In this document: positions 6,259-45,709 of the stretch, in pieces
Position numbering within the stretch: position 1 is the stretch's first letter
Layout: each line of letters opens with the position of its first letter
IMG/VR virus record: IMGVR_UViG_3300037322_000296
Coordinates: 3,085-67,084 of that record
Direction: 5' to 3' (one strand)
Length of the DNA: 64,000 bases
DNA from: a virus
The notes under the pieces: generated by a model
What the model was told of the DNA's origin: nothing
Database searches by the model: none
The model's input: only the letters and a program-made list of their open reading frames with translations
Program-made: the position numbers and the translations under genes

Positions 6259-6276
6259 TCACTAAATCATAATAAA

Positions 6277-6537
6277 ATGGAAAAAAAAGAAACGGTAACG
6301 CAGAAGAAAGTAGCGGTAAAAAAGGTAAAAAAGGCTAAGGTAAATAAAGAAATCCCAACAAGAGTACAATTAGTACAAGATGGAATTGATTTTAAGTCGG
6401 AAGGAAATAACATCTATTTTGATGTTAAAAAACTAAAAACAAAGTATAACTTTCTAACAAATTTTGAATTTGACGAGAAGGAATTTGAAGATGGTTTTAT
6501 TGGTGTTAAACTGCAAGATTTACAGATTAAAGAATAA
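6277..6537 (+). CDS. hypothetical protein
   Basis: 86-aa ORF followed by terminator. Confidence 0.65.
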   Translation: MEKKETVTQKKVAVKKVKKAKVNKEIPTRVQLVQDGIDFKSEGNNIYFDVKKLKTKYNFLTNFEFDEKEFEDGFIGVKLQDLQIKE

Positions 6538-18421: not shown

Positions 18422-21400
18422 ATGTTACAACCTAAACCAAAATTCGATCCTAATCAACCATACAAGGTTGTTAAAGAAAATAAATCTGAAACTACAGGAA
18501 AACCAGCGTTCGATCCAAACGAACCATTTGATGTTGTAAAAAAAAAAGAAGATACTACATCAACTTCTACAATTCAGAAGGAAAATTTGGCTTTGGAACA
18601 GAAAAGTGGTTCTTCGGATTTGCCAAAAATGAAGTCTTTTGATGGATTAAGTAAAAAAGATATTGCTTCTTTAAAGTCTAATCCTAATGCACCAAAATTA
18701 AATATTCCAAAACCTATTGAACGTACTTTGACAGGAACAAATGCGTATTTAAAAAAATTATCAAATAATAAACCTAAAATATTAGAAAACTACACCAAAC
18801 TTACAAATTCAGAAGTAGTAGACCAAGCATATATTGACCAAGAAAGACAAGACATAGAAGCTGATTTTAACGATACAGGGTTTTTAAATACCGTTACGAC
18901 AGGACTAAAAAACGTAGCCAACGCTATTATTGCACCAACACAAGCCGCATTAACTTTTGGAACATCTGATCCAGAGCCATTTTTTCAAACAGATCCTTTT
19001 TCTAAAGAAAAGTTAACCGTTGAAAAAAGAATTACATTAGAGATTTCAGAAGCTAAAAAACTAAACCTTCCAAAACCTATTTATAATCAAGAAGCCATTA
19101 ATAAAATGGTTAAAGAAGAAAAGTTATCTAACAATATAGCTTTAAAAAAAGAAAGTCAAGTTCGTAGTTTTATTGAAGATTTAGATGAATCAGATAAAGA
19201 CGATTTAAGCAACTATAAACTAATAGATGCTCTATCTTTAGATTTAAAAGAAAAAGACAACCTAAAGAAGCAAGGCGTTATATCAGAAACAATTTCTGTA
19301 ACACAAGAGGAAATATTAGGATTAGTATCTAAGTCTAAGAAAGGTAATTTAACCGAAGACGAAAAAGTTAATTTACAAAATTATTCTGCTAGTGTAAAAC
19401 AAAACCAAACCGAACTATTAAAACTAAAAGAAGATTTTTATAGCAATGATAAAAAATTAGGTACTGCTAAAGAAAATTTAGATTTATTGAAAAGAGATTA
19501 CACGTTTTCTCGACACTTTAAAAACCTAGAGGCTTCTGTTGTAGATTTATTTTCAAACACATCAGGCGTTTTAGATTATGGATTTAAAGCAGGACAAAAT
19601 GTGGTTGATAATTTTGATATGCCTATACTTTCGGGTGCTATGAAACTAGGTCAACGGGTTTTTGGAGAATCTTCTATTGAATTGAAAAAAGATTCAGAAA
19701 ATTTAAGGTCAAAAACTGCAAAACCTATTTCTGTAGATGGTATAAAAAGTTTAGACGATCTTGGTAGTTGGGCGGGAGATAATTTTACTTCGCAAGCGAC
19801 TGTTTTTGCATTAATTGCTACAGGATTACCAGGCGTTGCTACATTAGGTGCAACTTCTACAGGTCAAAAATACCAAGAGATGAAGGCTGAAATGGAAGCA
19901 GGAACTGAAATTTATGACGATTCACAATTATTATCAATTCCTGCAATTTTTGGAGCATCTGAAATAGCTAGTGCAACCGTTGATTTGTATTTATTCAAGC
20001 AAGCTCAAAGAACTTATCGGGCAGCAACAAGCGGAGAAAGAAGTATGATTGCTGACGGATTTGGAAAAAAACTATTTAACTTAGTAAAAGCTCCTGCAAT
20101 TGAAGTTCCTGACGAAATAAGCACACAATTTGTTCAAAACGCTGCTGATATTTACTTAGGCGGAAAGACAGATAAAGACCTTACCGATGGGTTTAAAGAT
20201 GCGGGTGCAGCAGCAGTACTTTTTGGATTAGTAATTGGTACAGCTCCTGCAATAATATCAAAAGCAACTAACAAATATAGTACAGATACAAAACTTCAAA
20301 AGGTTAATGCAGAAATGATTGGTTTACAAGCCGAACTAGACAAATTTGACATAAGTGATGCTAATAGAAAAACCATTACAGACCAACTAAACGTTGCAAA
20401 AGAAAAATCAACTTCTTTACTAAAAAAGAGAGTTAAGGATATGTCAACTTTATCCAACGAGCAATTTTTAGAGATAAATAAGATTGAAAAAACACAAGCA
20501 AATATTCGAGATAAAGCAAAATCTATAAAAGAAGATACTTCGTTAAATAACGACACTAAAAAACAGATTTTAGGCAATTTAAAAGAAGAATTTAACGCTA
20601 CAGAACAAAGACGTGTAGATTTATTAAATCGTGGCGCAAATGTACAGTTAGAAAGAATAGACGAGAAAGATAGAACTCGTTTAAAAGAAAAAGCGTTAAA
20701 AGAATTAACTAAAGAGCAAAACCCTGATGGCACAAAAGAAATCACTATTAAAGATGATGAAATTTCTAAACGTGCAGTTCAAATTTACAATCAGGAAGTT
20801 CAAGTAAAAAACGCAAAAATAAAAGAGGCGATTTTAAAAGAAGAAGCTTTAAAGAAAGAAGAATCAGAAAAAATAGTTCCTGTACAAGATGTAGTTATTC
20901 AGCCTATTGAATTAAGTGTTGAATCAAATACTATTGAAGATATAAATGAAAAAGGAATTGAATTTGGTTTAGACAAGCCTTTAAGAAGAGAGTTTGAAGA
21001 AGGAGAAGATGGAGATAAAAAATATGCGGAGGCTAATATACAACACAATAAAAATGTAGATGAAGCAATATCGGGTTTGACTCAAAATGGGATATTGATT
21101 GCCGAAGGTGCAGAATATGAAGTTGAAGTTACTTCACAAGGAGTTACCGTAAGACCAAAAGGACAAGATTACAAGAATTATTATAAAGGCAAACGTGTTT
21201 CAGCAGATACGCCATTTACGAAAGGATTTAAGTTTATACCAAACGAAGTAAAACCACAAATAAATACTCCTGCTCAACAAGTAGAAGGTCTTAGAGCAGA
21301 CGAACAAGCAGAACTTCGAGAAGCGATACCTAACGCAGAACAATTTGTTACAGATGGTAAAATTGATGAAACTAAGTTAGAAAATACCGAAGATAAAGCA

Positions 21401-24400
21401 AAGTTTAATGAAATTTACGACAAGTACGACAAGTTAATTACTCCATTATTAGAGCAACAAAATGAAGCAACACCGAGCAAAGATACTCCTGCTAATGGAA
21501 ACGTTCGACCTAGAATTGATGGGTTGGAGCAAACACCGCAACAACCAACTAATACACCAAGTAACGTTTCCGAAACCGTTGACGTTGGAGAAAGTGAAGG
21601 CGATGTTGAAGTAGTAAAAAAACCTGTAACTTTACAAGAGGATGCGAAACCTAACGCTTTAGATTTTTTAGATAAGAATATATTTGCTGATTTCAATAAA
21701 GAAGGCGAAACCCCAAAAGCAGTCAAAACACCTAATAAAGTGGTGCAAAAAGGAATATCCACTTCTGTTACGGACTTACCGATTAAAGATATTGTTACAG
21801 ACGAGTCAAGATTTCAAAACAGAGAAGGACTAGACGAAGAAAGAGTTCAAAATATAGTTGAAAATTTTGACAAGAACAAATTACTCCCTATCACAGTTTT
21901 TGAGGAAGGTGGTAAATACACCGTTTTATCAGGCCATCACCGTTTTGAAGCAATGAAACGTATGGGCGTTAATAAAATTGCGGTAAAAATATTCGATGGA
22001 ACAGAAGCCGAAGCTAAGGAATTTGCAAAAGACAGCAATACATTAGAAAAGCAAGAAACGGCAATAGAAAGAGCAAGTCGTTATAGAGAATTAAGAGCGC
22101 AAGGGCTATCTGAAAAGCAAATTACAGATATGGCAAGACAGGCTCATGGTAGCGATGCGGTTAAGATTGTAAATATGTCAAGACTTGAACCGAATGGAAA
22201 AGCATTGGAAACCGTTAAGCAGTTTGAAAAAAGCACTGATACTGATACTAAAAATAAAGTTCAAGCAGTGGCAGAATGGATAGGAAATGTCAAATCCAAG
22301 CATCCTGACTTATCAAAGGTTCAAGAAAATGAAATGTTTGATTATTTAATGGATGCTTATTCTACTAAAAAAGGAGCAGGAAAAATAACCAACAGAACAC
22401 AATTTTTCGATTTAGCTAACGCACTGATTACTAAGTTAAAAGAAAAAGGTAACTTTGACGAAAACACAACCGTAAATTTTAAAAACTCATTAGGCAAAAG
22501 CAGTATCGAACTAGAGTACGATAAAGCATTAAACGACGCAAAAGAAGCCGTTAAATCAGCTCAGAAAGAATTAGATAATAAAAGAGCCGACTTTTTAGCT
22601 AAGGGAGCTACAAAGGAAGATTTTGATAGAGTATTACCAAGTTACGAGAGTAAATTACAAACCGCTATTAAGAATGAGAATGATATTAGAAAAGACAAAG
22701 GTTTATTAAAAGAAGCCGTAAAAGACCAAGTATCATTATTTGACGAGATAGAAAATAATAAATTAGATGAAAAACCAAACGCCCACAGAGAAGTTCAGAA
22801 CATTCTTGAAGGAAACTCAGAAGAAACACCAAGCGATAAGAGAAGTGCTGAAGAAGAACAGCAAGAAGTAGGTAAAGAAAACTTAATAAAAGTATATCAT
22901 GGAGGTAGTGTTAAATCTATCGAAAACTTAGATAAAGGAGAACCATTATTTGTATCTGAAAATGAAGCGCAGGCTAAAGAATATACTAAGGAAAACGAAG
23001 GGAGTGTTGCTAGTTTTGAAATAAACGAAAATACAGTAGCTTCCGAAGAAACAGTAAGAGAAGCTATAGCGGAATTAGGTTTAATACCTAAAGAAGAAGG
23101 TTGGGAGGCAGATGAATTGAATATTTTTGAATTAATAGACCCTAAATTTGATACGTCTTTTACCGTTGAAGATATTAATATATTATTTAGAGAGTTAGAA
23201 AAAAGAGGTTTTGAGTCAGCTAGGTTTTACGATACTAACCTTAAAACTCTTAAACAAGATATTGAAAATATAGTAATATTTAATCCCCAACAAACATTAA
23301 GCGATAAACAAAAACCTCTAACCAAAGAACAAAAGAAACAAGTCAAGTTTAATGCTATTGATGTAGCAGTAGGAAAGATAAATAAAGCGCTCCCAAAAGG
23401 AGGCGGTGATGGTTACGACGGAAACATAAACGGAGTAAACCAAGATGCTATTTTAGACCACATAGCCGAAGCTATAAAAAAAATGGTTAGCGCAGGATAC
23501 GATATTGAAGAAGCTATTACTGAAATGATAAAAACGGTAAAAAACAACTTTAACTTTGATTTAAACATCGACGACATCAAGGCAAGGCTAAATCAAAAAA
23601 CAAAACAGCAAGGAGAGGAATTCGAAAGAAAATCAGGTAAAAAGTCTATTGCTAACAGAATATTTGACGGAGATAATAAAGCAATGCGAAAAGCCGTTTC
23701 TAAATATTCTCTTGATTATGAAGTGGAGAATCAAAACGAAGCAAAAGAAAATGCTGAAAATTTTGTAGACGAAGTAGGTATTCAAAACGCATATAATGAA
23801 GTTAAAAAAGGCAATATAAAAGGTGCTGAGAAAGCATTTGTTTATGCTAAAATAATAAAAGAATTATCAGAAGATATAAATTCTTTCCCAGAATCAGAAA
23901 GGTCGGAGATTGAAAGCATAAAAGAAAAGATGCTAGAAGATATTCAGCAAGAATTTGACCAAGAAGCTAGAAGTTCAGGTAGATTTATTGCTGCATTGGC
24001 AAATGTGTATAATTCTTCTCAAGGAGCATATAGTTTTAACAAAATGGTTAAGGATTATAAGGCTAAAAATAAAGGGAAAATAGATACCGAAACTTTAAAA
24101 AAGTTTGTTGAATTAGAAGCTAATTTAAAAGCATTAGAAGATAAAGTAAAAGTACTAGAAGCTCAAAAATTAGTTGAAGAAGAAAATCAAGCTTTCAACA
24201 ATATAGTTGAATCAATTGCTCGTGGTAAAAAAATAAACACAAATCAAAAAATAACCAACAAGCAAAAAGCAAAAAGTTTAGCTGATAAATTAAGAACTTT
24301 TAAAACAACCAATAAAGGAAATTTAAACGCTGCAACTCCGTTTAGTTTAGCTTACGACCTTGCTATTGAAGCCGCAGCAAAAATAATTGAAACTTCAGGA

Positions 24401-27319
24401 AGTATTGCAGATGCTATAAAAGCAGGACTAGAATCAATTAGAAAAAGTAATTTAGATAAAAACGAAAAAAGTCAAGCAGTAAATGAACTTTTTGATGCTT
24501 TTGATAATACGGAAGGAAGTTCTAAGGCTTCAATGTCAATAAACGAAGATGGAAGATTACGTATTCCGAATTCATTGATTAGAGAAAAGGTAGAAAGCGG
24601 AATTGATAATATTGAAGATTTAACTACGGAAATACTAGCTGAGGTTGAAGAAATGTTTCCTGACCAAGAGTTTACAGAAAGAGAAGTTAGAGATGCAATT
24701 ACCGGATATGGAAAAACTTCTAACCCTAACTTAGACGATATACAAACCGAAGTTTCAGTAATGAAATCTTTAGGTAGAATTGCGTCAGGAATAGAAGATG
24801 CTAATGCAGGGAAAAGACCTTTGCGTTCAGGACAACAACGCAGAGAAACCACTCCTAAAGAACGTATGGAGATGAAGAAATTAAAGGCGTTGTTAAGAGA
24901 TTTACCTTTAGCCGCTGCTGATATTGAAAAGGCATATAAAACAGCCTTAGAAACGATTAAAAAACGTTTATCAAACGAAATTGAAGAAATAGACATTCAA
25001 CTTGCGAATGGAGAAAGAAGAAAAGGAGAAAAAAGCGTAATTGAATACGACAAAGAAGCAAATGAATTAAAAGCTATTCGTAATTCTAAAAGAGAACAAC
25101 TTGATGAATTAGTTGGAAAACCTCAATTAACAGATGAACAAAAAATCGAAAGATCAGAGAAACTTTTACAAAAGAGAATTGATGATTTACAAGAGAAAAT
25201 AGCTAAAGGCGAGATTGAGTATGCTAAAAAGCCAGAACAAGTAACTTCTAATAAATTAGAAGAAATGCGTAAGGTTAAAAAAGAATTAGACGATCAGGTT
25301 AATAAGATGCGTGAAGATTCAGGTATGTTAGAAACTAGATTAATTGAAATTGCAAAGAGAAACGCAAGAAAAAGACTTGAAACCTTAAAGAAAAAAATTG
25401 CCGATAAAGATTTTTCTAAAACAAAAAGAAAGCCAGGTCCAACAGATGTAGAATTAGATAAATTAAAATCACAAATATTAGAGCAAAAGGAATTATACGA
25501 TACAGAAAGTTATTTGATAGAATTAAAAAACAGAAGTAAAGCTAAAAAAATAGGAGATTTTATAAAAGATTTAATATCTGTTCCTAAAATTATGAGTTTT
25601 ACTGTCGATTTAAGTTTTGTGGGGATACAAAATGTAACTCAGGTTTATAAAATGAGTGCTAATTCTCTAGTAAGTTTAATAAAAACAGGTAAGCTAAAGG
25701 GCGAATTAAGGGGTTCTTTAATGAATATGGCTAAGGCTATGGCTAGTCCTGATTTTGAGCAGAAATATATGGATAAAGTTAAATCAGATCCAATGTACGC
25801 ATTAATGAAACAAGTGAAACTAGGTTTAGTAGAATCTCATTACAAAGAAGCCGCTAAAGCTGAAGTATTTCAAAATAACTTAATAAGCACTTTGTTTGAT
25901 TTATTTGGTAATTATGTAGCTAGACAAGGTTTTGAAAAGGCAGGAGATATAATTAAAAACTATGTAAATATAGTTGCTATTTTTGAAAGAGGACAAACCG
26001 TATTTGAAAATGAAATAAGAAGAAAACGTTTTGAAGAAGGCGTAAAGCTTTTAGAGATTCAAGGATATAATCCCATAGAAAATATTGATGAATACAAAAA
26101 AGTAGCTGCTGCGGTAAATACATTAACAGGTAGAGCAAATACAGGTAGTAAAATTGCATCAGGATTAAGAGAAATGAATGGAATATTATTTTCTTCTTTC
26201 TCAAATTGGGCAGCAGGAATTAATCAACTAAATCCTTATTGGTATTCTACATTAACTCCTACTGCAAGAAAAATGGCTTTAACAGACGTGGCGCATCATA
26301 TTATAGGCGCAGGATCTATAGTAACAATGGCTGCAATGTATGGATTAGGTCAATCGGGAGAAGAAGACGAAAAAGATAAAGTAACTGTTGAAACAGATTT
26401 AACTAGCTCAGATGCCGGAGTTATTAAAGTGGGTAACGTTAGGATTGATCCTTGGGCAGGTAAGAAAACAACGATTGTTGCTATGTCAAGATTATTTAAA
26501 GGAGGTAGGTTAGATAAATACGGAAACTTCAAAGAATACGGGAATAAATATGAAGATATACCATACATAGATTTACCTTTAGATTATGCAGGAAACAAAC
26601 TTGCTCCTGGAATTAGAGCTGTTTTAGAAAGAACTTTTTTAACTGAAAAAGTAGAGCTAAATAACGGAGAATCTTTCAGAGAAGACAAATACGGAACTGA
26701 TTTTAAAGAATCTGATTATTTAACTCCGCTTGTTTTTGATGCTTTTTCGGAAGTAAATAGAGAACAACCTGGACTACTTGGAAAAGCAGTAATGGCTATA
26801 TCTTGGACAGGATTAGTAAATACTAATGTGTATGGCGGATATAGAGAAGGTATAAAAGGAATGCGAGATGGTCGTATGGATATAGAAACTAAAGAAGAAC
26901 TTCAAAGACTAACCGACAAAGAAGGTGTTTTTAAAAATAAATTTGACAAATTGGCTAAGGATGCTTTTGAAGAAAAACTAAATCCTAAACAAGTTCAAGA
27001 TAGTCTTTACAAATTAGTACAAGGAGATCCTGAATTATACAATAAAAAAATGGAATCTTTAATAAATAAAGTAGATAAAGAGAACGTGAAAAAGTACGTT
27101 ACAGATGCTTTCTTTATAGCTTTAGAAAAAGAAAATAATCCTGAGAAACAAGCCATAATGTATTACTCTCAGTTTAAGGATGGAAAAGGATTAAGTAAAG
27201 AGGTACAGAAAGATATAGACAAAAACAGTATGTTAGTTAAGTTTAAAGTAACTCCTGAATTCTTGGATGCTTATAGAAAAATAATAAAATTAAAAAGTGA
27301 AAAGAAAGCCATCAATTAA
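18422..27319 (+). CDS. giant internal virion (polyvalent) protein with ParB/Srx-like and ART-like domains
   Basis: 2965 aa; PITVFEEGGKYTVLSGHHRFEAM (ParB-like) and KVYHGG...LFVSENEAQAKEY (ADP-ribosyltransferase-like). Confidence 0.8.
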   Translation: MLQPKPKFDPNQPYKVVKENKSETTGKPAFDPNEPFDVVKKKEDTTSTSTIQKENLALEQKSGSSDLPKMKSFDGLSKKDIASLKSNPNAPKLNIPKPIERTLTGTNAYLKKLSNNKPKILENYTKLTNSEVVDQAYIDQERQDIEADFNDTGFLNTVTTGLKNVANAIIAPTQAALTFGTSDPEPFFQTDPFSKEKLTVEKRITLEISEAKKLNLPKPIYNQEAINKMVKEEKLSNNIALKKESQVRSFIEDLDESDKDDLSNYKLIDALSLDLKEKDNLKKQGVISETISVTQEEILGLVSKSKKGNLTEDEKVNLQNYSASVKQNQTELLKLKEDFYSNDKKLGTAKENLDLLKRDYTFSRHFKNLEASVVDLFSNTSGVLDYGFKAGQNVVDNFDMPILSGAMKLGQRVFGESSIELKKDSENLRSKTAKPISVDGIKSLDDLGSWAGDNFTSQATVFALIATGLPGVATLGATSTGQKYQEMKAEMEAGTEIYDDSQLLSIPAIFGASEIASATVDLYLFKQAQRTYRAATSGERSMIADGFGKKLFNLVKAPAIEVPDEISTQFVQNAADIYLGGKTDKDLTDGFKDAGAAAVLFGLVIGTAPAIISKATNKYSTDTKLQKVNAEMIGLQAELDKFDISDANRKTITDQLNVAKEKSTSLLKKRVKDMSTLSNEQFLEINKIEKTQANIRDKAKSIKEDTSLNNDTKKQILGNLKEEFNATEQRRVDLLNRGANVQLERIDEKDRTRLKEKALKELTKEQNPDGTKEITIKDDEISKRAVQIYNQEVQVKNAKIKEAILKEEALKKEESEKIVPVQDVVIQPIELSVESNTIEDINEKGIEFGLDKPLRREFEEGEDGDKKYAEANIQHNKNVDEAISGLTQNGILIAEGAEYEVEVTSQGVTVRPKGQDYKNYYKGKRVSADTPFTKGFKFIPNEVKPQINTPAQQVEGLRADEQAELREAIPNAEQFVTDGKIDETKLENTEDKAKFNEIYDKYDKLITPLLEQQNEATPSKDTPANGNVRPRIDGLEQTPQQPTNTPSNVSETVDVGESEGDVEVVKKPVTLQEDAKPNALDFLDKNIFADFNKEGETPKAVKTPNKVVQKGISTSVTDLPIKDIVTDESRFQNREGLDEERVQNIVENFDKNKLLPITVFEEGGKYTVLSGHHRFEAMKRMGVNKIAVKIFDGTEAEAKEFAKDSNTLEKQETAIERASRYRELRAQGLSEKQITDMARQAHGSDAVKIVNMSRLEPNGKALETVKQFEKSTDTDTKNKVQAVAEWIGNVKSKHPDLSKVQENEMFDYLMDAYSTKKGAGKITNRTQFFDLANALITKLKEKGNFDENTTVNFKNSLGKSSIELEYDKALNDAKEAVKSAQKELDNKRADFLAKGATKEDFDRVLPSYESKLQTAIKNENDIRKDKGLLKEAVKDQVSLFDEIENNKLDEKPNAHREVQNILEGNSEETPSDKRSAEEEQQEVGKENLIKVYHGGSVKSIENLDKGEPLFVSENEAQAKEYTKENEGSVASFEINENTVASEETVREAIAELGLIPKEEGWEADELNIFELIDPKFDTSFTVEDINILFRELEKRGFESARFYDTNLKTLKQDIENIVIFNPQQTLSDKQKPLTKEQKKQVKFNAIDVAVGKINKALPKGGGDGYDGNINGVNQDAILDHIAEAIKKMVSAGYDIEEAITEMIKTVKNNFNFDLNIDDIKARLNQKTKQQGEEFERKSGKKSIANRIFDGDNKAMRKAVSKYSLDYEVENQNEAKENAENFVDEVGIQNAYNEVKKGNIKGAEKAFVYAKIIKELSEDINSFPESERSEIESIKEKMLEDIQQEFDQEARSSGRFIAALANVYNSSQGAYSFNKMVKDYKAKNKGKIDTETLKKFVELEANLKALEDKVKVLEAQKLVEEENQAFNNIVESIARGKKINTNQKITNKQKAKSLADKLRTFKTTNKGNLNAATPFSLAYDLAIEAAAKIIETSGSIADAIKAGLESIRKSNLDKNEKSQAVNELFDAFDNTEGSSKASMSINEDGRLRIPNSLIREKVESGIDNIEDLTTEILAEVEEMFPDQEFTEREVRDAITGYGKTSNPNLDDIQTEVSVMKSLGRIASGIEDANAGKRPLRSGQQRRETTPKERMEMKKLKALLRDLPLAAADIEKAYKTALETIKKRLSNEIEEIDIQLANGERRKGEKSVIEYDKEANELKAIRNSKREQLDELVGKPQLTDEQKIERSEKLLQKRIDDLQEKIAKGEIEYAKKPEQVTSNKLEEMRKVKKELDDQVNKMREDSGMLETRLIEIAKRNARKRLETLKKKIADKDFSKTKRKPGPTDVELDKLKSQILEQKELYDTESYLIELKNRSKAKKIGDFIKDLISVPKIMSFTVDLSFVGIQNVTQVYKMSANSLVSLIKTGKLKGELRGSLMNMAKAMASPDFEQKYMDKVKSDPMYALMKQVKLGLVESHYKEAAKAEVFQNNLISTLFDLFGNYVARQGFEKAGDIIKNYVNIVAIFERGQTVFENEIRRKRFEEGVKLLEIQGYNPIENIDEYKKVAAAVNTLTGRANTGSKIASGLREMNGILFSSFSNWAAGINQLNPYWYSTLTPTARKMALTDVAHHIIGAGSIVTMAAMYGLGQSGEEDEKDKVTVETDLTSSDAGVIKVGNVRIDPWAGKKTTIVAMSRLFKGGRLDKYGNFKEYGNKYEDIPYIDLPLDYAGNKLAPGIRAVLERTFLTEKVELNNGESFREDKYGTDFKESDYLTPLVFDAFSEVNREQPGLLGKAVMAISWTGLVNTNVYGGYREGIKGMRDGRMDIETKEELQRLTDKEGVFKNKFDKLAKDAFEEKLNPKQVQDSLYKLVQGDPELYNKKMESLINKVDKENVKKYVTDAFFIALEKENNPEKQAIMYYSQFKDGKGLSKEVQKDIDKNSMLVKFKVTPEFLDAYRKIIKLKSEKKAIN

Positions 27320-27710: not shown

Positions 27711-27733
27711 AATTATTTGGGTTTTAGTTTTAA

Positions 27734-27825
27734 TATCTATTTTTTTTAGCGCAATTGGTTAAATTTTTAATTGTTTGGTTATTAGTTATTTAGAAACGTA
27801 GGTTCGTATATATACAAGTTGTAGG
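27734..27825 (+). repeat. attI-like anchor, copy 1 (inverted repeat of 45619-45709)
   Basis: 92 bp, 7 substitutions and 1 gap versus reverse complement of 45619-45709; ends TATATATACAAG|TTGTAGG at first cassette. Confidence 0.9.
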
Positions 27826-27836
27826 TAATGCTGCGT

Positions 27837-28964
27837 TTATCTTAAATAAGACAATATGTAAGCTATAACATCGATTGTCCAGCCATTACCTAACATTTTG
27901 TATCGTTGTGTATCTGAAACGTGATTTGTATAGTTTTCAGGTACGGTTTGCAATCTTTCACATTCTATTGGTGTTAATCTTCTTATGTTGGTTTTTGTTT
28001 GTATTAAATCCATATCACTATGATTCCCACCACTATTTCCGCCAGCAGTATAACAACTCGCTTTTTGTTGATTTTTTTTAATATTTCCTTTTTTATCAAC
28101 TTTTATATAAGTATCGGCATTTCCCATTTTGTGAACTCTTGCACTTATGCAACTTGATTTATTTTCAGATTGTAATGTTTCAGTTGTATATTTATTGAAA
28201 ACTTCGTGATTTTTCAAACATTCTAACATTTTGCCACTCAAAAAATATTTATCAGCAACATCAATTTCTAAAATATCTTTCAATAAAATTCCTTTGTCTT
28301 TTGGTTGTGGAATTGTACATTCTAAATCGCCAAAAAATCCAATTTGTTCAACTCCAATATTTGTCCAGTACAAACGATTTCTATTTTGAGCAGAAAGCAA
28401 AGCACTATTAATTTGGATCGGATTAATTCCGATTGCTCTTGTTAATACTTTTTGCCACTTTTCGCCCATTACTACGTTTTCAAGTAAAAAGTAAATGTTT
28501 GGATTAGTTTCTCGCAATTCGTTTAGTATTCGGATATATTCCCAAAACAAATAAGATTGTCCTTCAAATTCAAAGTTTTGACTTTTCAACTCCAGGTAAT
28601 GCTCGATTGATAAAATTTCAAGTTCACATTTTGTTGCCATTCCTTTTCTTTTTCCAGCAAACGAAAAACTTTGACAAGGCGAACCTCCAGCAAGTATGTG
28701 TACAAATCCTAAATCTTTACCTTTTACGTTTCTTACATCGCCAATTTGTATCGTATTTGGAAAATTAGCCATTGTAACTTGTATTGGATATTTTTCTATT
28801 TCAGAAGCGTAATATTTTGTTGGTGTTTTACTAATTTTATTTAACGCTAATTGAAAGCAACTCATTCCATCGAACAAAGAAACTGCTACAAAATCCGCAC
28901 TACCTACAACACGTGTTTTGCAAGATTGTGAATCCTGTGGTTTAATAATATTTTCGTTTCGCAT
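27837..28964 (-). CDS. C5-cytosine DNA methyltransferase (cassette 1)
   Basis: SLFDG, GGSPCQ, LLENV, QNRNRLY, GNGW motifs. Confidence 0.93.
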   Translation of the reverse strand: MRNENIIKPQDSQSCKTRVVGSADFVAVSLFDGMSCFQLALNKISKTPTKYYASEIEKYPIQVTMANFPNTIQIGDVRNVKGKDLGFVHILAGGSPCQSFSFAGKRKGMATKCELEILSIEHYLELKSQNFEFEGQSYLFWEYIRILNELRETNPNIYFLLENVVMGEKWQKVLTRAIGINPIQINSALLSAQNRNRLYWTNIGVEQIGFFGDLECTIPQPKDKGILLKDILEIDVADKYFLSGKMLECLKNHEVFNKYTTETLQSENKSSCISARVHKMGNADTYIKVDKKGNIKKNQQKASCYTAGGNSGGNHSDMDLIQTKTNIRRLTPIECERLQTVPENYTNHVSDTQRYKMLGNGWTIDVIAYILSYLR

Positions 28965-29027
28965 TGTAATTTATTTTAAGTTGAAATTTTACTGTTACGA
29001 AGTTCACAACCTCGCAAAGCACCAAAC
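28911..29027. repeat. attC-like palindromic spacer A (117 bp)
   Basis: Arms gtgttttgcaagattgtgaa / ttcacaacctcgcaaagcac between AAC and GTT. Confidence 0.85.
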
Positions 29028-29040
29028 GTTAGGCGTAATG

Positions 29041-29994
29041 CTAAGACAACCCTCCGAAGATATGAGCAATCGTATCAACATTCCATCCATTTCCTATCAT
29101 TTTTCTAATTTGGTTATCACTTGCCACACCATCAAAGTAAGTTTCAGGCACGGTTTGTAATCTGCAATATTCTTTGATTGAGTAATAGCGGAAAGGTAAA
29201 TTGTTTTTGAATGCGTTAGGGTGTCGTCCTATTGGCATTGTGGTTAAAACATTGTCTTTTGCTACTGTGGTTAAACAGTTGCTTTTATCTCGGTTTGTGG
29301 CTCTCACTTCAAGGCATTGCGTTATTGGTATTTCTTTGTTGTAATCCTCTCGTTTACCTTTATCGTTCAATCTTCTACCCAAAATAGTAGCCTTATTCAA
29401 TCTTCGTCCTCTTATTGGACTTGGACCAATCATCCCAGTATCTTCTAAAATATCAATCAATTTTATTTGTTTGTCGGTTGGTTGTTCAATTGTAAAGTTT
29501 GCCCAATACAATCGTTCTCTATTTTGGGCTGATACCAAAGCACTATTTATCCTTACAGGTTCTACCCCTAAGTGTTCGGTTATCACTTGTTCAAATTCCT
29601 TTTTCATAACCACATTTTCCAAAAGCCAATATTTCGGTTTACATTCCTTAATCAGTCTTACAAATTCAAAAAATAATTTGCTTCGTGGGTCATCAAAATT
29701 CAATTGCTTCCCGCTAAAACTAAATCCTTGGCAAGGGCTTCCACCTATCAATAAATCTACTTTCGGTAAATCCGTGCCTTTAATATCGGTAACACTTCCA
29801 AGTTGTATCGTATTAGGGTAATTGTGTTGTGTTACTTTTATGGCGTGTTTATCAATCTCCGAAGCATAATATTTGCCATAGGAAATGGATACTCTGTTGA
29901 GTGCAATTTGTCCGCAACTCATACCATCGAATAACGAAAGCACTGCACCTAACACGGGTTTGGCAAAATTGCCGTTTTGTTCTTCTATCAACAT
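29041..29994 (-). CDS. C5-cytosine DNA methyltransferase (cassette 2)
   Basis: SLFDG, GGSPCQ, LLENV, QNRERLY, GNGW motifs. Confidence 0.93.
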   Translation of the reverse strand: MLIEEQNGNFAKPVLGAVLSLFDGMSCGQIALNRVSISYGKYYASEIDKHAIKVTQHNYPNTIQLGSVTDIKGTDLPKVDLLIGGSPCQGFSFSGKQLNFDDPRSKLFFEFVRLIKECKPKYWLLENVVMKKEFEQVITEHLGVEPVRINSALVSAQNRERLYWANFTIEQPTDKQIKLIDILEDTGMIGPSPIRGRRLNKATILGRRLNDKGKREDYNKEIPITQCLEVRATNRDKSNCLTTVAKDNVLTTMPIGRHPNAFKNNLPFRYYSIKEYCRLQTVPETYFDGVASDNQIRKMIGNGWNVDTIAHIFGGLS

Positions 29995-30065
29995 TCGTTC
30001 TTAATTATTAAGTTTTGTATTTCAATTGAGCTTTCGGTTCGGCAACTTCGCCAAGCCCGAAACCG
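29954..30065. repeat. attC-like palindromic spacer B (112 bp)
   Basis: Arms cgggtttggcaaaattgccg / cggcaacttcgccaagcccg. Confidence 0.85.
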
Positions 30066-30077
30066 TTATGCCTCATT

Positions 30078-31046
30078 TTAGGAGGACTTACAGAAACAAT
30101 CAGTTTCAAATTCAAATAACTCTTGTTGTTGTTTTGAAAGTTCGTGTAAATCTTCCGCTTTTGTGAATGGTCTTTGTGCCATTTCTACAAGTTCCTCAAT
30201 ACTTTTATTTGTTCTTAAATCAAATCTCGGTACATCTTCAAAAGCATAAGTTTCTTCCATTCTTTGCCACCATTCCGCAATACTTGGATTATCTTTTATA
30301 ATTGTTAATCGCTTTTTTAATGACTTTTTAAAGCATAAATCACAATTTCCCTCGTAATCTTTTAAACCTAAATCAAAACTTTGTTTTTCCCAAAACTCAC
30401 GAACCATTCTTTGATTCATTGGCAATTCATCGCACAAAGGGTAAATTATATTTTCTTCTTTAGCGTGTATTGATTTTCGGTGCGCCTCGTCTGCTCTAAT
30501 GCCTATTGCACGAATTATATTCATATTTTTAAAATTATCTCTTAAATATGCGTCAATAGGCCTTTGTTTTAACTCTCTTGTGCAATTTGAAGCCATGTTG
30601 TTTGGTAATGGGTATTTTTTAAGCATTGCTTCAAATGGTTCTCCGTTTCTTGATGCAGTTTCAAAATTTACTATTGTGTATGTCGTACCTGTTTTAAAAA
30701 ACCTTACGTCTCTATCAAATTCTCTTAAACCAATAGCGTAATTTTCTCCAAGCATTTCTTTAAAGTCTTCCAGTCCATTTATATCGCATTTCATTCTTCC
30801 GAATCCTGGATAAACAAAATCGTAATTAACGCTTGCTTCAAGCCATATTAAATTTAATCCAAACTCTTTATCACATTTATCGGCAAAAATTAAACTCTTT
30901 TCTAATTCTCTACCTGTATTTAAAAACACATAAATAACGTTTGGATATTTATGTGGATTTTCTTTTAAATGCTTTGCTAAAATTGCAGATGTTCTACCAC
31001 TTGAAAACATACATACATACAATTTATTATTCAATGATTTTTCCAT
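30078..31046 (-). CDS. PAPS-reductase-family (PP-loop) protein (cassette 3)
   Basis: FSSGRTS, NTGRE, CTRELK, IGIRADE, GNCDLCF. Confidence 0.85.
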   Translation of the reverse strand: MEKSLNNKLYVCMFSSGRTSAILAKHLKENPHKYPNVIYVFLNTGRELEKSLIFADKCDKEFGLNLIWLEASVNYDFVYPGFGRMKCDINGLEDFKEMLGENYAIGLREFDRDVRFFKTGTTYTIVNFETASRNGEPFEAMLKKYPLPNNMASNCTRELKQRPIDAYLRDNFKNMNIIRAIGIRADEAHRKSIHAKEENIIYPLCDELPMNQRMVREFWEKQSFDLGLKDYEGNCDLCFKKSLKKRLTIIKDNPSIAEWWQRMEETYAFEDVPRFDLRTNKSIEELVEMAQRPFTKAEDLHELSKQQQELFEFETDCFCKSS

Positions 31047-31197
31047 AAGTATCTATTTCAAATTTTAATTCAAATTCACATTTTATTCCAAAATTTTGAG
31101 TGGAACAAGGATATTTAGATTTACAAACATTACAATAAAAACGAGGCATAACATCGGTTTGCACGCATTGCTCGTTTTCGTTTATATCGTTTTTCAT
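31027..31197 (-). CDS. 56-aa Cys-rich peptide starting inside spacer C (not in ORF track)
   Basis: MKNDINENEQCVQTDVMPRFYCNVCKSKYPCSTQNFGIKCEFELKFEIDTYGKIIE*, overlaps PAPS-reductase start by 20 nt. Confidence 0.55.
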   Translation of the reverse strand: MKNDINENEQCVQTDVMPRFYCNVCKSKYPCSTQNFGIKCEFELKFEIDTYGKIIE

Positions 31198-31262
31198 TTA
31201 CTTTTAGTTTTTAATAATTAAAATTCGTTTTCATAAGTCGCAACGACGTGCAAGCCGCAGCC
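31153..31262. repeat. attC-like palindromic spacer C (110 bp)
   Basis: Arms cggtttgcacgcattgc / gcaacgacgtgcaagccg (one extra base). Confidence 0.85.
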
Positions 31263-31275
31263 GTTAGCAAACAAC

Positions 31276-31725
31276 TTAGTTTGATTCTGCCAATAGTTCA
31301 GGATTTTCAAAAATGTTTCCAATTACATTACAAACTAGATTAATGCAGTTAATTCTAAAAGTCATTTCTTGTTGATTGTATTTGGGTAGTTTATTATTAT
31401 AAACAAAATTACATACGAACATTCCTTCTTTAAACCTCATTATTCCTTGAGCATTAAATCCATTATGTAAAATATCTCCTTCGTAAATATCAATGCCGTT
31501 TTTATCTTTTAATCCTGTAAACTGCATTATGTTTATTTCTCTTGAAAATTGGTCATTTAAAGGTGCATATTCTGAAAAAGCAAAGTCACTACCATAAAGC
31601 ATTTTTGGTTCAGAACAACCAGTAAGATGTTCGTCAAAAACCCTAAAAAATCTAAATTTGAAAAGTCGATTTGCTAACAACGGTTTGAACGCATTGCTTA
31701 AATCTGTGGAATTACTTTTTTTCAT
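31276..31725 (-). CDS. YopX family protein (cassette 4)
   Basis: MQFTGLKDKNGIDIYEGDIL and VIGNIFENPELL. Confidence 0.9.
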   Translation of the reverse strand: MKKSNSTDLSNAFKPLLANRLFKFRFFRVFDEHLTGCSEPKMLYGSDFAFSEYAPLNDQFSREINIMQFTGLKDKNGIDIYEGDILHNGFNAQGIMRFKEGMFVCNFVYNNKLPKYNQQEMTFRINCINLVCNVIGNIFENPELLAESN

Positions 31726-31790
31726 GTTCGTTTGTTTTTAATTATTAAATTTTGTTTTCATAAGCAAGCAACGACGTGCAAGCCGCAGCC
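31679..31790. repeat. attC-like palindromic spacer D (112 bp)
   Basis: Arms cggtttgaacgcattgctt / aagcaacgacgtgcaagccg; last 23 bp identical to spacer C. Confidence 0.85.
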
Positions 31791-31803
31791 GTTACAAGAC
31801 AGT

Positions 31804-32286
31804 TTAGGACAACTGAATAAAACGACCTTTTATGTTGCAGTTCTTTAATATTTCAGCATTGTTTTTTCCGTATGCTATTAATACACTTGGTGCGCCAGCC
31901 GAAGATCCTTTTACTCCTGTAACATGGTAAAAACTTAATCGACCTTTTATAAACAATATCGCATCAGCTTTTTCCCAAACGCACTTAAAAAACATTTTAG
32001 TTTCAGTTCTTGCAAAAGTCAAAGCAATACAATTTCCATGCATTGCAGCTTTTTCTAAAAAATGTTCAGCATATTTTCCATAAGGTGGATTACACCAAAC
32101 CCTACCAAACCAATTTTGCATTAATCCGTTATCATTTATATTGAAATGATTTGTCGCAGTATCCCATGGTCTATTTATCGGAGAACAAGGATCTAAGTCA
32201 AAATCCCCCAATGATTTTATTAGTTCTGGAGGCGTTAACCATTCGTCTTTTCCTGTTGCTGTATTTCCTTCAAAAGTTACATTCAT
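31804..32286 (-). CDS. phage N6-adenine DNA methyltransferase (cassette 5)
   Basis: DEWLTP, LDPCS, WCNPPY, ARTET; probable ATG at 32286 (MNVTFEG). Confidence 0.88.
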   Translation of the reverse strand: MNVTFEGNTATGKDEWLTPPELIKSLGDFDLDPCSPINRPWDTATNHFNINDNGLMQNWFGRVWCNPPYGKYAEHFLEKAAMHGNCIALTFARTETKMFFKCVWEKADAILFIKGRLSFYHVTGVKGSSAGAPSVLIAYGKNNAEILKNCNIKGRFIQLS

Positions 32287-32317
32287 AATTTGTGTGAATA
32301 AAAAACCGTCTTGTAAC

Positions 32318-32436
32318 ACTCGTTTTGTGCTATTACGGCAGTTGTGGTTAATTCATATTTGTTTTGCACGTAGGCGTTTATTTTTAATTGAAAATCTAGT
32401 TTTCGCTAATCCGTAACAGACACAAAGCGAGGGAAC
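32318..32436. repeat. attC-like palindromic spacer E (119 bp)
   Basis: Arms ctcgttttgtgctattacgg / ccgtaacagacacaaagcgag (one extra base). Confidence 0.85.
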
Positions 32437-32437
32437 G

Positions 32438-32875
32438 TTAGTGGTCAGTTAAAGAACTAATCTGCAATTCTTCACTATTCCGAAAAAAGAATATATTTTG
32501 CAAGTGGTGTAGCCCTTTGATTTCAACTCTTGAAACGTATTCAATCCATAGTCCATTGATGAAATTAATTTGCATTCCAAATAAATTAAAACTTGGAAAA
32601 TCTTTTAAATCTAACTTTACAGCATTTAATTTTAAAAGCAATTCTTCTGAAATTGGTATCGATTCAAATTCAGAGTGTTCGGTATAATCAAACGTAATTT
32701 CATCAATGTATAAGTATTCAGAATCTACACCAGTAACTGTACTATATTTTCTTTCTCCGTAAATTAATTTTACAATATTTCCAATACGTATTTCGGTTGG
32801 TAAAATAGCCGAACCGCTGACAGCATTTTGGCAAGATTGCTGATTTTGTGGTTCATTAATGTTTTCGTTTAACAC
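32438..32875 (-). CDS. hypothetical phage protein (cassette 6), paralog of 35466-35852
   Basis: EIRIGNIVK...IPISEELLLKL...LHHLQNIFF; TAA stop lies inside the cassette end TAAC. Confidence 0.8.
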   Translation of the reverse strand: MLNENINEPQNQQSCQNAVSGSAILPTEIRIGNIVKLIYGERKYSTVTGVDSEYLYIDEITFDYTEHSEFESIPISEELLLKLNAVKLDLKDFPSFNLFGMQINFINGLWIEYVSRVEIKGLHHLQNIFFFRNSEELQISSLTDH

Positions 32876-32894
32876 AATAAGTAATTTTAAATTT

Positions 32895-43446: not shown

Positions 43447-43651
43447 CAAAGATAAGAATGTATTTTAAATAACCGCACAATTATTGTATTATTTTTATAT
43501 AAAAAATATCGGAGTAAAGTTTTTCCTACAAATGAAAAGTTACCTAAAACGCTAGGAGTATAGTCTTTGCACTACAATCGTAATATGATTGTGTTTTTAA
43601 TAAAAAATTGTATTAAAATTGTGCGGTAATCAAAAATAATTTATATATTTG
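43447..43651. promoter_or_regulatory. divergent promoter pair with shared AATTGTGCGGT box
   Basis: Minus -7 TATCTTTG (43447-43454) and plus -7 TATATTTG (43644-43651); 11-bp inverted repeat at 43472-43482 and 43617-43627 over each -33 region. Confidence 0.7.
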
Positions 43652-43700
43652 CGTATTGAATAAAACCGCGGTTATAGGCAGTATGGGAATTTAAAAATAA

Positions 43701-44429
43701 ATGAAAATGAAATATATGGGAAGTAAGGCAAGGTTTGCAAAAGAACTATTGCCAATAATATTAAAAGATAGAAAAGAAAATCAATACTATGTAGAGCCTT
43801 TTGTTGGTGGTGCAAATATGATTGACAAAGTAAATGGGTTGAGGATTGCTGGAGATAGTAATAAATATCTAATTGCATTATGGAATGGTTTAAAAACTAA
43901 TAGCGATTTACTTATGGAAATATCAAAAGACACTTTTTCAAAAGCAAGAACTGAATACAATGACAAAACTAATATTGAATTTACAGATTTTGAATTAGGT
44001 TGGATTGGTTTTATGGGAGGGTTTAATGGTAGATTTTATGGTGGGGGATATTCAGGCAAGCATAGAAATAGAGATTATGTAAATGAGCAAATCCGAAATA
44101 CATTAAAGCAATTAGAAGCCATAAAAGATATTGATTTTAATAGTTGTAATTACGACCAATTAGAAATACCAAACGGAAGTATTATTTATTGCGATATTCC
44201 TTATCAAGGTACAAAAGAATATGATACAAAGGATAGATTTAATCATACAGAATTTTGGAGCTGGTGTAGGGAAAAATCAAAAAATAATACTGTCTATGTT
44301 TCAGAATATAATGCACCAGATGATTTTGAGTGTGTTTGGGAAAAGAAAGTAAACGTATCAATTAGACCAACAAAAACCTTACAACAAACAGAACGATTAT
44401 TTAGGCTAAAATCGACTATTGAAAACTAA
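43701..44429 (+). CDS. DNA adenine methyltransferase, D12/Dam class (cassette 7)
   Basis: KYMGSK, YVEPFVGG, IYCDIPY, VSEY. Confidence 0.9.
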   Translation: MKMKYMGSKARFAKELLPIILKDRKENQYYVEPFVGGANMIDKVNGLRIAGDSNKYLIALWNGLKTNSDLLMEISKDTFSKARTEYNDKTNIEFTDFELGWIGFMGGFNGRFYGGGYSGKHRNRDYVNEQIRNTLKQLEAIKDIDFNSCNYDQLEIPNGSIIYCDIPYQGTKEYDTKDRFNHTEFWSWCREKSKNNTVYVSEYNAPDDFECVWEKKVNVSIRPTKTLQQTERLFRLKSTIEN

Positions 44430-44448
44430 TAATAATATTGCCTATAAC

Positions 44449-44567
44449 GTTCCCTCGCTTGCTCGTCGTTGCGGATTTCGTAACGATAAATTTTCAACTT
44501 AAAAATAAATATGATGCGAAACGAAAATATGATTAAACCAATAAACTCACAATCTTGCAAAACACGT
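44449..44567. repeat. attC-like spacer F (119 bp), apparently chimeric
   Basis: Most of it resembles reverse complement of spacer A (…tcacaatcttgcaaaacacgt identical); first 12 nt match reverse complement of spacer E end. Confidence 0.8.
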
Positions 44568-44634
44568 GTTGTAGGCATACCACTTAACACTTTTAAAAAT
44601 AACTTAAATTAAAAATAACTTAAATTAAATAAAA

Positions 44635-45600
44635 ATGAAAAAATATCCAAGTATCGAGCAGTTTAGAAATGTTATTAGAACTGTAAAAACAAATCACGAT
44701 TATCAAGGTAAAGATGAAAATGGAGAAAGTATTTATTCTCACAATTCTAATTACCCAACTTTAAAATTCAAAGGAACTGTAAAGCTTCACGGAACAAATG
44801 CTGGAGTTGTAAAATACGCTGATGGAAAAATAGAATTTCAATCAAGAGAAAGAGTTTTAACTTTAGATTCAGATAATTCTGGATTTATGAATAAAATGCA
44901 CTTATTAGATTTTGAAAAATATTTTTCTCAATTAACATTTACAGAAAGTTGTGCGATTTATGGAGAATGGTGTGGTGGAAACGTTCAAAAAGGAGTTGCT
45001 ATAAACGGACTTGAAAAAATGTTTGTGATTTTTGGAGTAAAAACAGATGATGAATGGATTGAAATTCCTGTAACATTTATAGATGAAGAAAATAAAATAT
45101 TCAATATTAATCAATTCAAAACGTATGAAGTTGAAATAGATTTTAATAATCCAGAATTAATACAAAATAAACTTATTGAATTGACTATTGAAGTTGAAAA
45201 TGAATGTCCTGTTGGTAAATATTTTGGGAATATTGGTATTGGAGAAGGAATTGTATTTACTTCTTTAAAGTACCCTGATTTAATATTCAAATCAAAAGGA
45301 GAAAAACATTCTGTATCAAAAGTAAAAGTGTTAAATGAAATTGATGTTGTAGCAATGGAAAATATTAATGAATTTATTGAACTATCTGTAACAGAAAATA
45401 GATTGAAACAAGGATTACAAGTTTTAAAAGAAAATGGAATATTGATAGAGACTAAATCAATTGGAGAGTTTTTAAGATGGATTGTAACTGATGTTTTAAA
45501 AGAAGAAAAAGACACTTTAGAAACAAGTAGATTAGATGAGAAAAAAGTGAAAGGAGCAATTGTAAACAAAGCAAGAGTTTGGTTTTTAAACAATTTTTAG
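44635..45600 (+). CDS. RNA ligase, Rnl2-like (cassette 8)
   Basis: Motif I KLHGTN, QSRER, YGEW, GEGIV, FKSK. Confidence 0.88.
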   Translation: MKKYPSIEQFRNVIRTVKTNHDYQGKDENGESIYSHNSNYPTLKFKGTVKLHGTNAGVVKYADGKIEFQSRERVLTLDSDNSGFMNKMHLLDFEKYFSQLTFTESCAIYGEWCGGNVQKGVAINGLEKMFVIFGVKTDDEWIEIPVTFIDEENKIFNINQFKTYEVEIDFNNPELIQNKLIELTIEVENECPVGKYFGNIGIGEGIVFTSLKYPDLIFKSKGEKHSVSKVKVLNEIDVVAMENINEFIELSVTENRLKQGLQVLKENGILIETKSIGEFLRWIVTDVLKEEKDTLETSRLDEKKVKGAIVNKARVWFLNNF

Positions 45601-45618
45601 CGATAATATGGGCGGTTG

Positions 45619-45709
45619 CCTACAACTTGTATATATAAGAACCTACATTTGTAAAATACTTATAACCAAACAATTAAAAATTGAACCAATTGCGCTAAAA
45701 AAATAGATA
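45619..45709 (-). repeat. attI-like anchor, copy 2 (inverted repeat of 27734-27825)
   Basis: See copy 1; ends at the base immediately before the recombinase ATG (45710). Confidence 0.9.

Follow-up and report, generated by a model that had tools for sequence, protein, structure and literature searches.

The window analysed here is a 64,000-nucleotide (nt) stretch comprising bases 3085–67084 of a single 67,084-bp virus record (IMG/VR IMGVR_UViG_3300037322_000296), a 67-kb salt-lake phage, and it carries two tandem gene arrays whose open reading frames (ORFs) are separated by similar, hairpin-forming junctions. Array 1 lies on the minus strand, which carries all long ORFs between 27333 and 43414. 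In transcription order it begins with an antirepressor gene, the gene for a 145-amino-acid (aa) protein, a Dam-like methyltransferase (MTase) and YopX, and continues with an ORF of 56 aa together with a gene weakly resembling PAPS reductase, two C5 MTases and a 125-aa gene. The shorter array 2, on the plus strand, contains a D12 MTase and an RNA ligase gene and is followed by the gene for a 416-aa tyrosine integrase (Table 1). We think it probable that both are integron-like arrays assembled from units that each comprise a hairpin interior, an arm beginning with GTTA, a gene and a second arm ending in TAAC; these units would dock at a constant anchor sequence and, in about half of the cases, the hairpin loop would supply the start of the gene.

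Read on the gene strand, each junction consists of the stop codon of the upstream gene, TAAC, a 5′ stem, an AT-rich loop, a 3′ stem (...CAAAACCGxT) and GTTA. The stop codon lies 8–9 nt ahead of TAAC at four of five junctions and is the TAA of TAAC itself at junction E. The whole junction forms an imperfect hairpin of ~150 nt, running from TAAC to GTTA, in which these two terminal motifs are invariant. We aligned the six full junctions of the window with 19 others taken from eight IMG/VR contigs, 25 in total, with interiors of 110–122 nt (108–122 nt across 40 junctions). Alignment with MAFFT and folding with RNAalifold yield a consensus of 22 pairs, 15 of which display compensatory double changes. 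Standard pairs occupy 90.5% of the paired cells compared to 70.7 ± 1.2% in shuffles, none of 500 of which reaches the observed value; the covariation score is 0.469 versus 0.128 in the control, and sliding the consensus structure by 1–3 columns leaves 33–45% paired. Single-strand folds bring both stems together in junctions A, B, D, E and G. Two G·T pairs are near-invariant (24/25 and 25/25), a C·A 1 × 1 mismatch recurs in 13 cases, and the structure features a 3- to 4-nt 5′ bulge and a loop of ~65–75 nt. The junction hairpin is real, and compensatory changes maintain it. From the 25 junctions we derived a covariance model, R1, whose matches in the 64-kb window are the six junctions and no other site, all on the gene strand; Rfam families give no match in the 20 kb searched.

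A second level of complementarity connects the two ends of each cassette. The 12 nt after the 5′ GTT approximate the reverse complement of the 12 nt before the 3′ AAC of the same cassette (GTT-x...x′-AAC). Own arms are complementary at 9.8 of 12 positions (30 cassettes), compared to 4.3 of 12 (standard deviation 1.7) for arms of different cassettes and 5.15 of 12 for the two arms of array neighbours that meet at one junction. Position 8 of the arm is Watson–Crick paired in 0 of 30 cassettes, with G in 24 of the 5′ arms and T in 29 of the 3′ arms, and is a fixed G·T on the gene strand. No other feature speaks as strongly for a unit at the DNA level as these cassette-specific arms. Counted without further conditions, GTT+7/7+AAC ten-mers are no more frequent in the window than in shuffles, owing to AT-rich noise; the arm signal emerges only once the arms must contain GC and show the fixed mismatch at position 8. 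Empty cassettes that consist of arms only (GTT...AAC, 32–63 nt) are present in locus L011 (about 6226–6436) and locus L085 (5101–5160 and 5843–5905).

The arms also bear on whether the junctions could be MITEs (miniature transposable elements with inverted repeats), as their length of ~120–150 nt, terminal inverted repeats, AT-rich middle, many copies and intergenic location might suggest. Each flank, however, pairs across the adjoining gene and not with the opposite flank, the stems vary between copies via compensatory changes, and the junctions keep a strict tandem spacing of one per gene beside a constant anchor. No target-site duplication is apparent in the printed flanks, inspected by eye and without a count. 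Because no such duplication was seen and the arms pair across the gene, we rejected this explanation, to which we give practically no credence.

The arrays have a fixed end and a fixed orientation. In all arrays seen, the cassette genes face the anchor. Whatever the cargo, the last cassette ends with an AAC that directly adjoins a constant tail of ~85 nt, both in the two window arrays and in loci L003 and L006–L011, and the same AAC/tail boundary occurs with variant tails in L014/L075, L067, L076 and L095. Pairwise tail homology begins 2–6 nt before the end of AAC in most blocks, with a few reaching another 10–22 nt into the last cassette. Scanning with 18-mers for additional tails gave 47 loci but no new true tail. 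The two window tails share 92% identity over 85 nt and are inverted copies lying 18 kb apart; one recombinase acting on both anchors could invert the segment between them. At the opposite end of the array, a full 5′ hairpin stands before the first cassette, after backbone sequence ending in ...TAAC and a TAnnTTTG box, in L003, L006, L007, L011, L067 and L076. Where two arrays have the promoter-side cassette in common, the anchor side differs (window versus L006, L009 versus L010), and L009 and L010 part right after their common ...AAGCGGTAAC. When the layout is flipped, it reads recombinase, anchor and then repeats of gene and hairpin, which is the classical order with every gene reversed.

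Cargo turns over at this position. The same backbone site carries different cassette sets in L003 and L006–L011, and no array is present at that site in L012–L019. In these more distantly related loci (L014, 8001 and upstream; L012–L019), a 277-aa backbone gene directly follows the upstream gene without promoter, array or tail, so that the three behave as one inserted module.

The anchor also marks the position of a recombinase gene in relatives. In L067, L076 and L095, a small tyrosine recombinase of 266–267 aa starts ~52 nt after the last AAC. This protein carries the Pfam domain Phage_int_SAM_4 and scores 187 bits against the NCBIfam XerA/integron-integrase model and 146 bits against the IntI model, both under the cut-offs (146 versus 265 bits for TIGR02249 and 95 versus 435 for NF011946, matched in two stretches). 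Close homologues with 52–82% identity occur in Flavobacterium and other Bacteroidota assemblies; in seven of the eight closest loci in such assemblies the gene begins 51–52 nt after ...AAC, and five of those loci have R1 hairpins immediately upstream, on the same strand. L075 retains a 34-codon remnant of the small recombinase ahead of a homologue of the window's 416-aa integrase.

The 416-aa integrase is the single PF00589 match in the window genome, with weak Xer matches and no match to the IntI model, and its family occurs in 65–75-kb phages. An IMG/VR scan with the 416-aa protein alone found no relative, and 27 homologue loci were obtained via alignment. Of the 23 of these loci searched with R1, six have arrays within 7 kb, as judged by R1 hits and the arm scan, on the opposite strand in L073 and L083. 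The 416-aa protein is probably a lysogeny integrase, and we set it aside as the cassette enzyme because complete array-carrying relatives lack it. The small Xer/IntI-like protein is the better candidate, and the window phage has lost it. The window arrays are therefore orphan arrays, comparable to clusters of attC sites lacking integron-integrases (CALINs).

The junctions are also remarkable for where the cassette genes start. A preliminary description of this DNA had proposed that each spacer contains a start codon whose ORF reads through the GTT core. The leader peptides, the 56-aa ORF and the GTG leader that it quoted are all present in the sequence, and all three phases across GTT are indeed used. 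The 56-aa ORF of spacer C (31197–31027) extends beyond position 31046, where the PAPS-reductase-like gene starts, and the TGA of the GTG leader in spacer E overlaps the ATG of the Dam-like MTase. "Each" is nonetheless too broad, since ATG ORFs of this kind are found in junctions A–D while E and F offer only GTG starts, the sole ATG ORF of junction E stopping before GTT. The loop ATG ORFs of A, B and D run in frame into MTase 1, MTase 2 and YopX, whose Pfam domains start downstream of the leaders (Table 1), and that of C is the 56-aa ORF. The start in half site F is GTG, and its L006 orthologue has ATG.

Across the 25 aligned junctions, the first ATG of the cargo frame lies in the loop, 41–69 nt before GTT, in 14. 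Among the remaining 11, one has a loop ATG that starts a small ORF, two have leader-only ORFs and eight have no ATG ORF crossing GTT. The 11 non-fused cassettes have their own ATG after GTT (at +5 to +38 in nine, and at +67 and +106 in two), and their frames close within 35 nt upstream of GTT or after GTT. Eighteen more junctions from integrase-linked arrays, scored with the looser criterion of any ATG ORF covering at least 60% of the cassette, divide into eight fused, three leader-only and seven with neither. The frame of a 124-aa cassette is preserved despite a 6-nt difference in its leader between L006 and L008. The loop is the start region for about half of the cassettes, far above chance placement of an in-frame, open ATG, and translation would in these cases begin within the hairpin. 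The idea that the recombination site doubles as a translation-initiation region agrees with the sequences to that extent; about a third of the cassettes have their own ATG after GTT.

A leader of the type M-R-N-E-N-x-x-x-P-x-x-x-Q-x-C-x-x-x-V-x-G-S-A recurs in four unrelated cassettes (window 28890–28964, 32822–32875 and 44511–44580; L007 6700–6770). The Ser codon of this leader is AGT in one and TCG in the other of MTase 1 and the 145-aa gene, a difference that hints at selection on the leader peptide, which might act, for example, as a targeting or processing tag.

In the arrangement that we consider probable, the mobile unit most likely consists of the hairpin interior, the GTTA arm, the gene and the arm with TAAC. 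Once the unit is circular, its interior and two arms would fold into a single long, imperfect hairpin (TAAC...GTTA), an analogue of attC. Docking would occur at the anchor, a non-palindromic sequence that closes the array downstream, with a crossover at or beside the step between TAA and C. Genes would be read toward the anchor, opposite to classical integrons, and the promoterless cassettes would be transcribed from a promoter at the far end. For roughly half of the cassettes, the AT-rich loop would provide the start region, the ATG and a 14- to 24-codon leader that passes through the 3′ stem and the GTT core, and the other cassettes would use their own ATG just past the 5′ arm. The orphan arrays of the window could be served in trans or be frozen.

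Several observations weigh against this arrangement. A PF00589 search finds no small Xer/IntI-like recombinase in the window genome; the array-bearing relatives G001, G002 and G003 (93–100% complete) are without the 416-aa integrase, PF00589 matches are altogether absent from G002 and G003, and G006 and G008 lack the small recombinase. The sense strand is the stabler one in 19 of 25 junctions with DNA parameters and in only 13 of 25 with RNA parameters. Fifteen of 43 junctions have no ATG ORF across GTT, and near-cognate starts at the core (TTG for YopX, GTG for MTase 2) could substitute for the loop ATG. Finally, a 594-nt block with 91% identity between the window and L006 spans the 145-aa gene and all of junction E; it breaks off 3 nt past the G of GTTA, and the cargo on the far side is unrelated. 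Junction G is poorly paired and composite: its 5′ stem opens with ~16 nt of E type, and its loop and 3′ stem are of A type. L003 has a comparable chimera as its first junction, and interior families recur before unrelated cargo (A/G; C/D; L006-J4/L011). The break on the GTTA side and the chimeric interiors imply exchange at or inside the hairpin as well, and such exchange, within the hairpin or at its 3′ end, probably occurs by homology.

The break shared with L006 raises the question of whether the polarity might be classical after all, with a unit of gene plus 3′ hairpin, a crossover between G and TTA and an attI-like promoter end. The window and L006 share the 145-aa gene with the junction behind it and split exactly after GTTA, L006, L007 and L003 retain related first interiors before different cargo, and an AAC...GTT element after the ORF on the gene strand resembles the classical top strand. 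Yet a hairpin never follows the last cassette, where only the constant anchor is found right after AAC, the first cassette is preceded by a full hairpin, and the recombinase lies at the anchor end. The divergence of L009 and L010 immediately downstream of the ...AAGCGGTAAC that they have in common is likewise at odds with a classical unit, whose shuffling would put fused leaders out of frame two times in three. We regard classical polarity as very unlikely.

The fate of the remaining earlier proposals can now be stated. That the unit is the gene with the hairpin on its 5′ side, in reversed polarity, is mostly supported, by the anchor, the first hairpin and the recombinase position, with the break on the GTTA side and the chimeras counting against it. 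A gene was expected to co-occur with its 5′ spacer in relatives; L009 and L010 have promoter-side cassettes in common and differ on the anchor side, and the window and L006 have the 145-aa gene together with junction E, on its 3′ side, in common. The model had also been credited with explaining why the distal cassettes have only a half site (32822–32880) or a bare GTT (43671). It in fact predicts a full hairpin at both places, and both are truncations; the L006 orthologue of half site F has a full hairpin.

Comeau and colleagues are said to have described, in 2014, promoter early stem-loops (PeSLs) as regulatory cassettes of T4-type phages. In the available text of Arbiol et al. 2010 (PMC2839356), PeSLs of T4-type phages are repeats with a strong promoter and a terminator that recombine by homology, and they mediate shuffling and form mini-circles. 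By analogy, the junctions could be RNA-level regulatory hairpins, acting as translation insulators whose loop offers an unstructured start region, or as processing sites, that are shuffled by homologous recombination without a dedicated enzyme. Chimeric interiors (G and the first junction of L003) and interior families with unrelated cargo would follow naturally from such a process, complete array-bearing phage genomes without a detected tyrosine recombinase would pose no difficulty, and both the start codon in the loop of about half of the junctions and the invariant G·T pairs, which are G·U-compatible on the gene strand, would fit a function in RNA. However, this leaves unexplained the cassette-specific inverted arms, the exact and cargo-independent boundary between AAC and the anchor, the arms-only empty cassettes and the Xer/IntI-like gene located ~52 nt after the last AAC in 10 loci. 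The interiors also lack the regulatory signals: the TAnnTTTG promoter motif occurs in 0 of 25, and scans that are crude for Bacteroidota give sigma-70-like and terminator-like sites at frequencies not above shuffles (24 versus 23.7 expected and 3 versus 2.7 expected, respectively), with no terminator-like site in a junction on the gene strand. We judge shuffling of RNA-level hairpins without an enzyme to be unlikely, though less so than classical polarity.

In a classical integron, as presented in the available text of two accounts (PMC4670013, PMC5027507), the ORF precedes its own attC and, driven by Pc, points away from attI. The arrays described here resemble integrons, especially sedentary chromosomal ones with homogeneous attC sites of ~120 nt, in having promoterless one-gene cassettes in tandem, separated by imperfect AAC...GTT hairpins in which structure and not sequence is conserved, as in attC. 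Such sites further show unpaired features (extrahelical bases, an unpaired central spacer and a variable terminal loop), against which the 5′ bulge, the C·A mismatch, the G·T pairs and the ~65–75-nt loop of the junctions would have to be set. The cassette ends are complementary as are R″ and R′ of one attC, here over a longer stretch, the non-palindromic docking site lies beside a tyrosine recombinase gene transcribed away from the array, and the variable cassettes are at the docking end. In contrast to integrons, where IntI, a tyrosine recombinase with an extra domain of its own, is encoded next to the array, the recombinase of the relatives has only 266–267 aa and falls under the IntI cut-offs, and the window has no such enzyme. 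The genes read toward the docking site with the hairpin on their 5′ side and a promoter-like box at the far end, the arms are complementary for 11–12 nt beyond GTT with a fixed G·T, and about half of the loops contain a start codon and leader.

Phage attC clusters without IntI (CALINs), including cassettes with DNA MTases, are reported in the available text of Qi et al. 2023 (PMC9892861). Their examples include the marine Flavobacteriia phage Polaribacter phage P12002L, with two MTase cassettes, where one site recombined with attI1 by IntI1 and the two sites are noted to lie in "divergent directions" (PMC9892861, available text). A CALIN is recognised by at least two attC sites, called with attC covariance models, and by the lack of IntI nearby. 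The window arrays resemble these phage CALINs in combining attC-like sites with MTase cassettes in a phage without IntI, here with six hairpins and no recombinase of the Xer/IntI type. Unlike the window, P12002L (locus L020) gives no match to R1 and its hairpins of ~55 nt represent another sub-type. Within L020 (5880–7570), a D12 MTase gene and a Mom-like gene lie within inverted arms of ~30 nt (GTTACC.../...GGTAAC), with the ~55-nt hairpins between the arms. Small genes nearby have ...AFSLNxV/GTT... inside their ORFs, which suggests that these genes may have much longer leaders. Reversed genes, loop starts, an anchor and an Xer-like recombinase, by which the present arrays differ from phage CALINs, are not described in the available text of PMC9892861.

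The arrays resemble PeSLs in that repeated intergenic stem-loops flank non-essential genes in variable phage regions, with shuffling and possible mini-circles, and differ from them in interiors free of promoter motif or terminator signal and in the combination of cassette-specific arms with a constant anchor. Acinetobacter plasmids contain pdif modules, in which inversely oriented XerC/XerD sites surround genes. Gene modules are likewise bounded here by inversely oriented sites, presumably those of an Xer-type recombinase, but a pdif site is a short, double-stranded, fixed sequence, whereas the present sites are long hairpins with arms that differ per cassette. A reversed variant with starts in the loop and an Xer-like, non-IntI enzyme was not found in the literature searched, nor in the available text of PMC9892861.

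A more specific proposal, which we put forward tentatively and hold to be somewhat less probable than the integron-like organisation itself, is that the arrays belong to a distinct, IntI-independent capture system of Bacteroidota phages and hosts, in which the folded recombination site doubles as expression module, a loop-start hairpin travels before the gene, the gene strand recombines and the array is transcribed toward the recombinase. If so, captured genes would need neither a promoter nor a start codon of their own, and transcription toward the recombinase gene could tie the expression of cassettes to the supply of recombinase. Gene capture is exemplified in textbooks by integrons, with their fixed logic of gene, attC, attI and Pc; a working variant with a compact Xer-like enzyme, genes that face the docking site and a hairpin that doubles as translation start would imply that the principle of hairpin cassettes predates IntI and exceeds it in flexibility. 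Such a variant would also account for the quick swapping of anti-restriction methylases by Flavobacteriia phages. As the sites, the anchor and the 267-aa recombinase of the relatives are all short, the system would be a compact one.

Table 1 Coordinates of anchors, cassettes and junctions in the window, and of the small recombinase genes in three other loci (E, E-value; arms given as 5′ / 3′)
Feature	Position	Strand	Description
Anchor (tail 1)	27711–27817	-	Non-palindromic; directly after the AAC of the last cassette; then 125-aa gene (27710–27333)
Cassette, C5 MTase 1	27818–28910	-	ORF 28964–27837; PF00145, E 2e-37, domain from aa 28; arms GTTGTAGGTAGTGCG / AGCATTACCTACAAC; protein opens MRNENIIKPQDSQSCKTRVVGSA...; ATG at -54 from GTT, no own ATG ahead of domain
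Junction A interior (117 nt)	28911–29027	-	Stems and AT-rich loop; ATG 28964; R1 124 bits; folds; 84–86% identical to junction G
Cassette, C5 MTase 2	29028–29953	-	ORF 29994–29041; PF00145, E 1e-38, domain from aa 18; arms 9/12; protein opens MLIEEQNGNFAKPVLGAV...; ATG at -41 from GTT
Junction B interior (111 nt)	29954–30064	-	Loop ATG 29994; single-stranded DNA fold z -2.9; R1 112 bits
Cassette, 56-aa ORF and PAPS-reductase-like gene	30065–31152	-	Exact 10-mer arms GTTATGCCTCG / TGAGGCATAAC; 56-aa ORF from loop ATG at -45; PF01507 match weak, E 0.0026, under cut-off
Junction C interior (110 nt)	31153–31262	-	Loop ATG 31197; R1 86 bits; 90% identical to junction D over 61 nt
Cassette, YopX	31263–31678	-	ORF 31725–31276; PF09643, E 2e-19, domain from aa 23; arms GTTAGCAAA / TTTGCTAAC; protein opens MKKSNSTDLSNAFKPLLANR...; ATG at -47 from GTT
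Junction D interior (112 nt)	31679–31790	-	Loop ATG 31725; R1 96 bits
Cassette, Dam-like N6-adenine MTase	31791–32317	-	PF05869, E 4e-13; exact 10-mer arms GTTACAAGACG / CTGTCTTGTAAC; own ATG 31 nt past GTT
Junction E interior (119 nt)	32318–32436	-	Only GTG leader ORF 32369–32283, VQNKYELTTTAVIAQNECYKTVFYSHKL then stop; R1 125 bits; orthologous junction in L006
Cassette, 145-aa protein, no family assigned	32437–32821	-	ORF 32875–32438; degenerate 5′ core GTC; poor arms; opens (GTG)LNENINEPQNQQSCQNAVSGSA...; orthologue in L005/L006; no match in Pfam and NCBIfam searches
Half site F	32822–32880	-	Loop remnant; GTG start 32875; 3′ stem only, 5′ stem absent
Candidate -7 box, TATATTTG	43644–43651	+	Bacteroidetes type; just upstream of the first cassette of array 2; similar boxes ahead of the first TAAC in L003, L006, L007, L011, L067 and L076
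Cassette, D12-class N6-adenine MTase	43671–44448	+	PF02086, E 3e-13; arms GTTATAGGCAG / ATTGCCTATAAC; 5′ hairpin cut to ~20 nt
Junction G interior (119 nt)	44449–44567	+	Chimeric; R1 104 bits; leader ORF MMRNENMIKPINSQSCKTRVVGIPLNTFKNNLN then stop, 33 codons, ends 22 nt before ligase ATG
Cassette, RNA ligase	44568–45626	+	PF09414, E 5e-11; arms found; own ATG 67 nt after GTT
Anchor (tail 2)	45627–45709	+	Ends one base before the ATG of the 416-aa tyrosine integrase (45710–46960)
Small Xer/IntI-like recombinase, L067	6182–6985		Directly after last cassette
Small Xer/IntI-like recombinase, L076	6175–6975		Directly after last cassette
Small Xer/IntI-like recombinase, L095	1501–2301	-	Directly after last cassette

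Parts of the window stretch are contained in 24 metagenome DNA runs (share at most 0.5), and no RNA run is listed as containing it. A blastn comparison with GenBank phages matched the methylase and antirepressor genes only and revealed no syntenic phage. Outside the arrays, the plus strand at 18422–27319 carries an ORF of 2965 aa that includes a ParB-like stretch (...SGHHRFEAM...) and is hydrophobic in its C-terminal part. Homologues in L001/L002 share 63% identity over the C-terminal 499 aa, and the product looks like a polyvalent virion protein.

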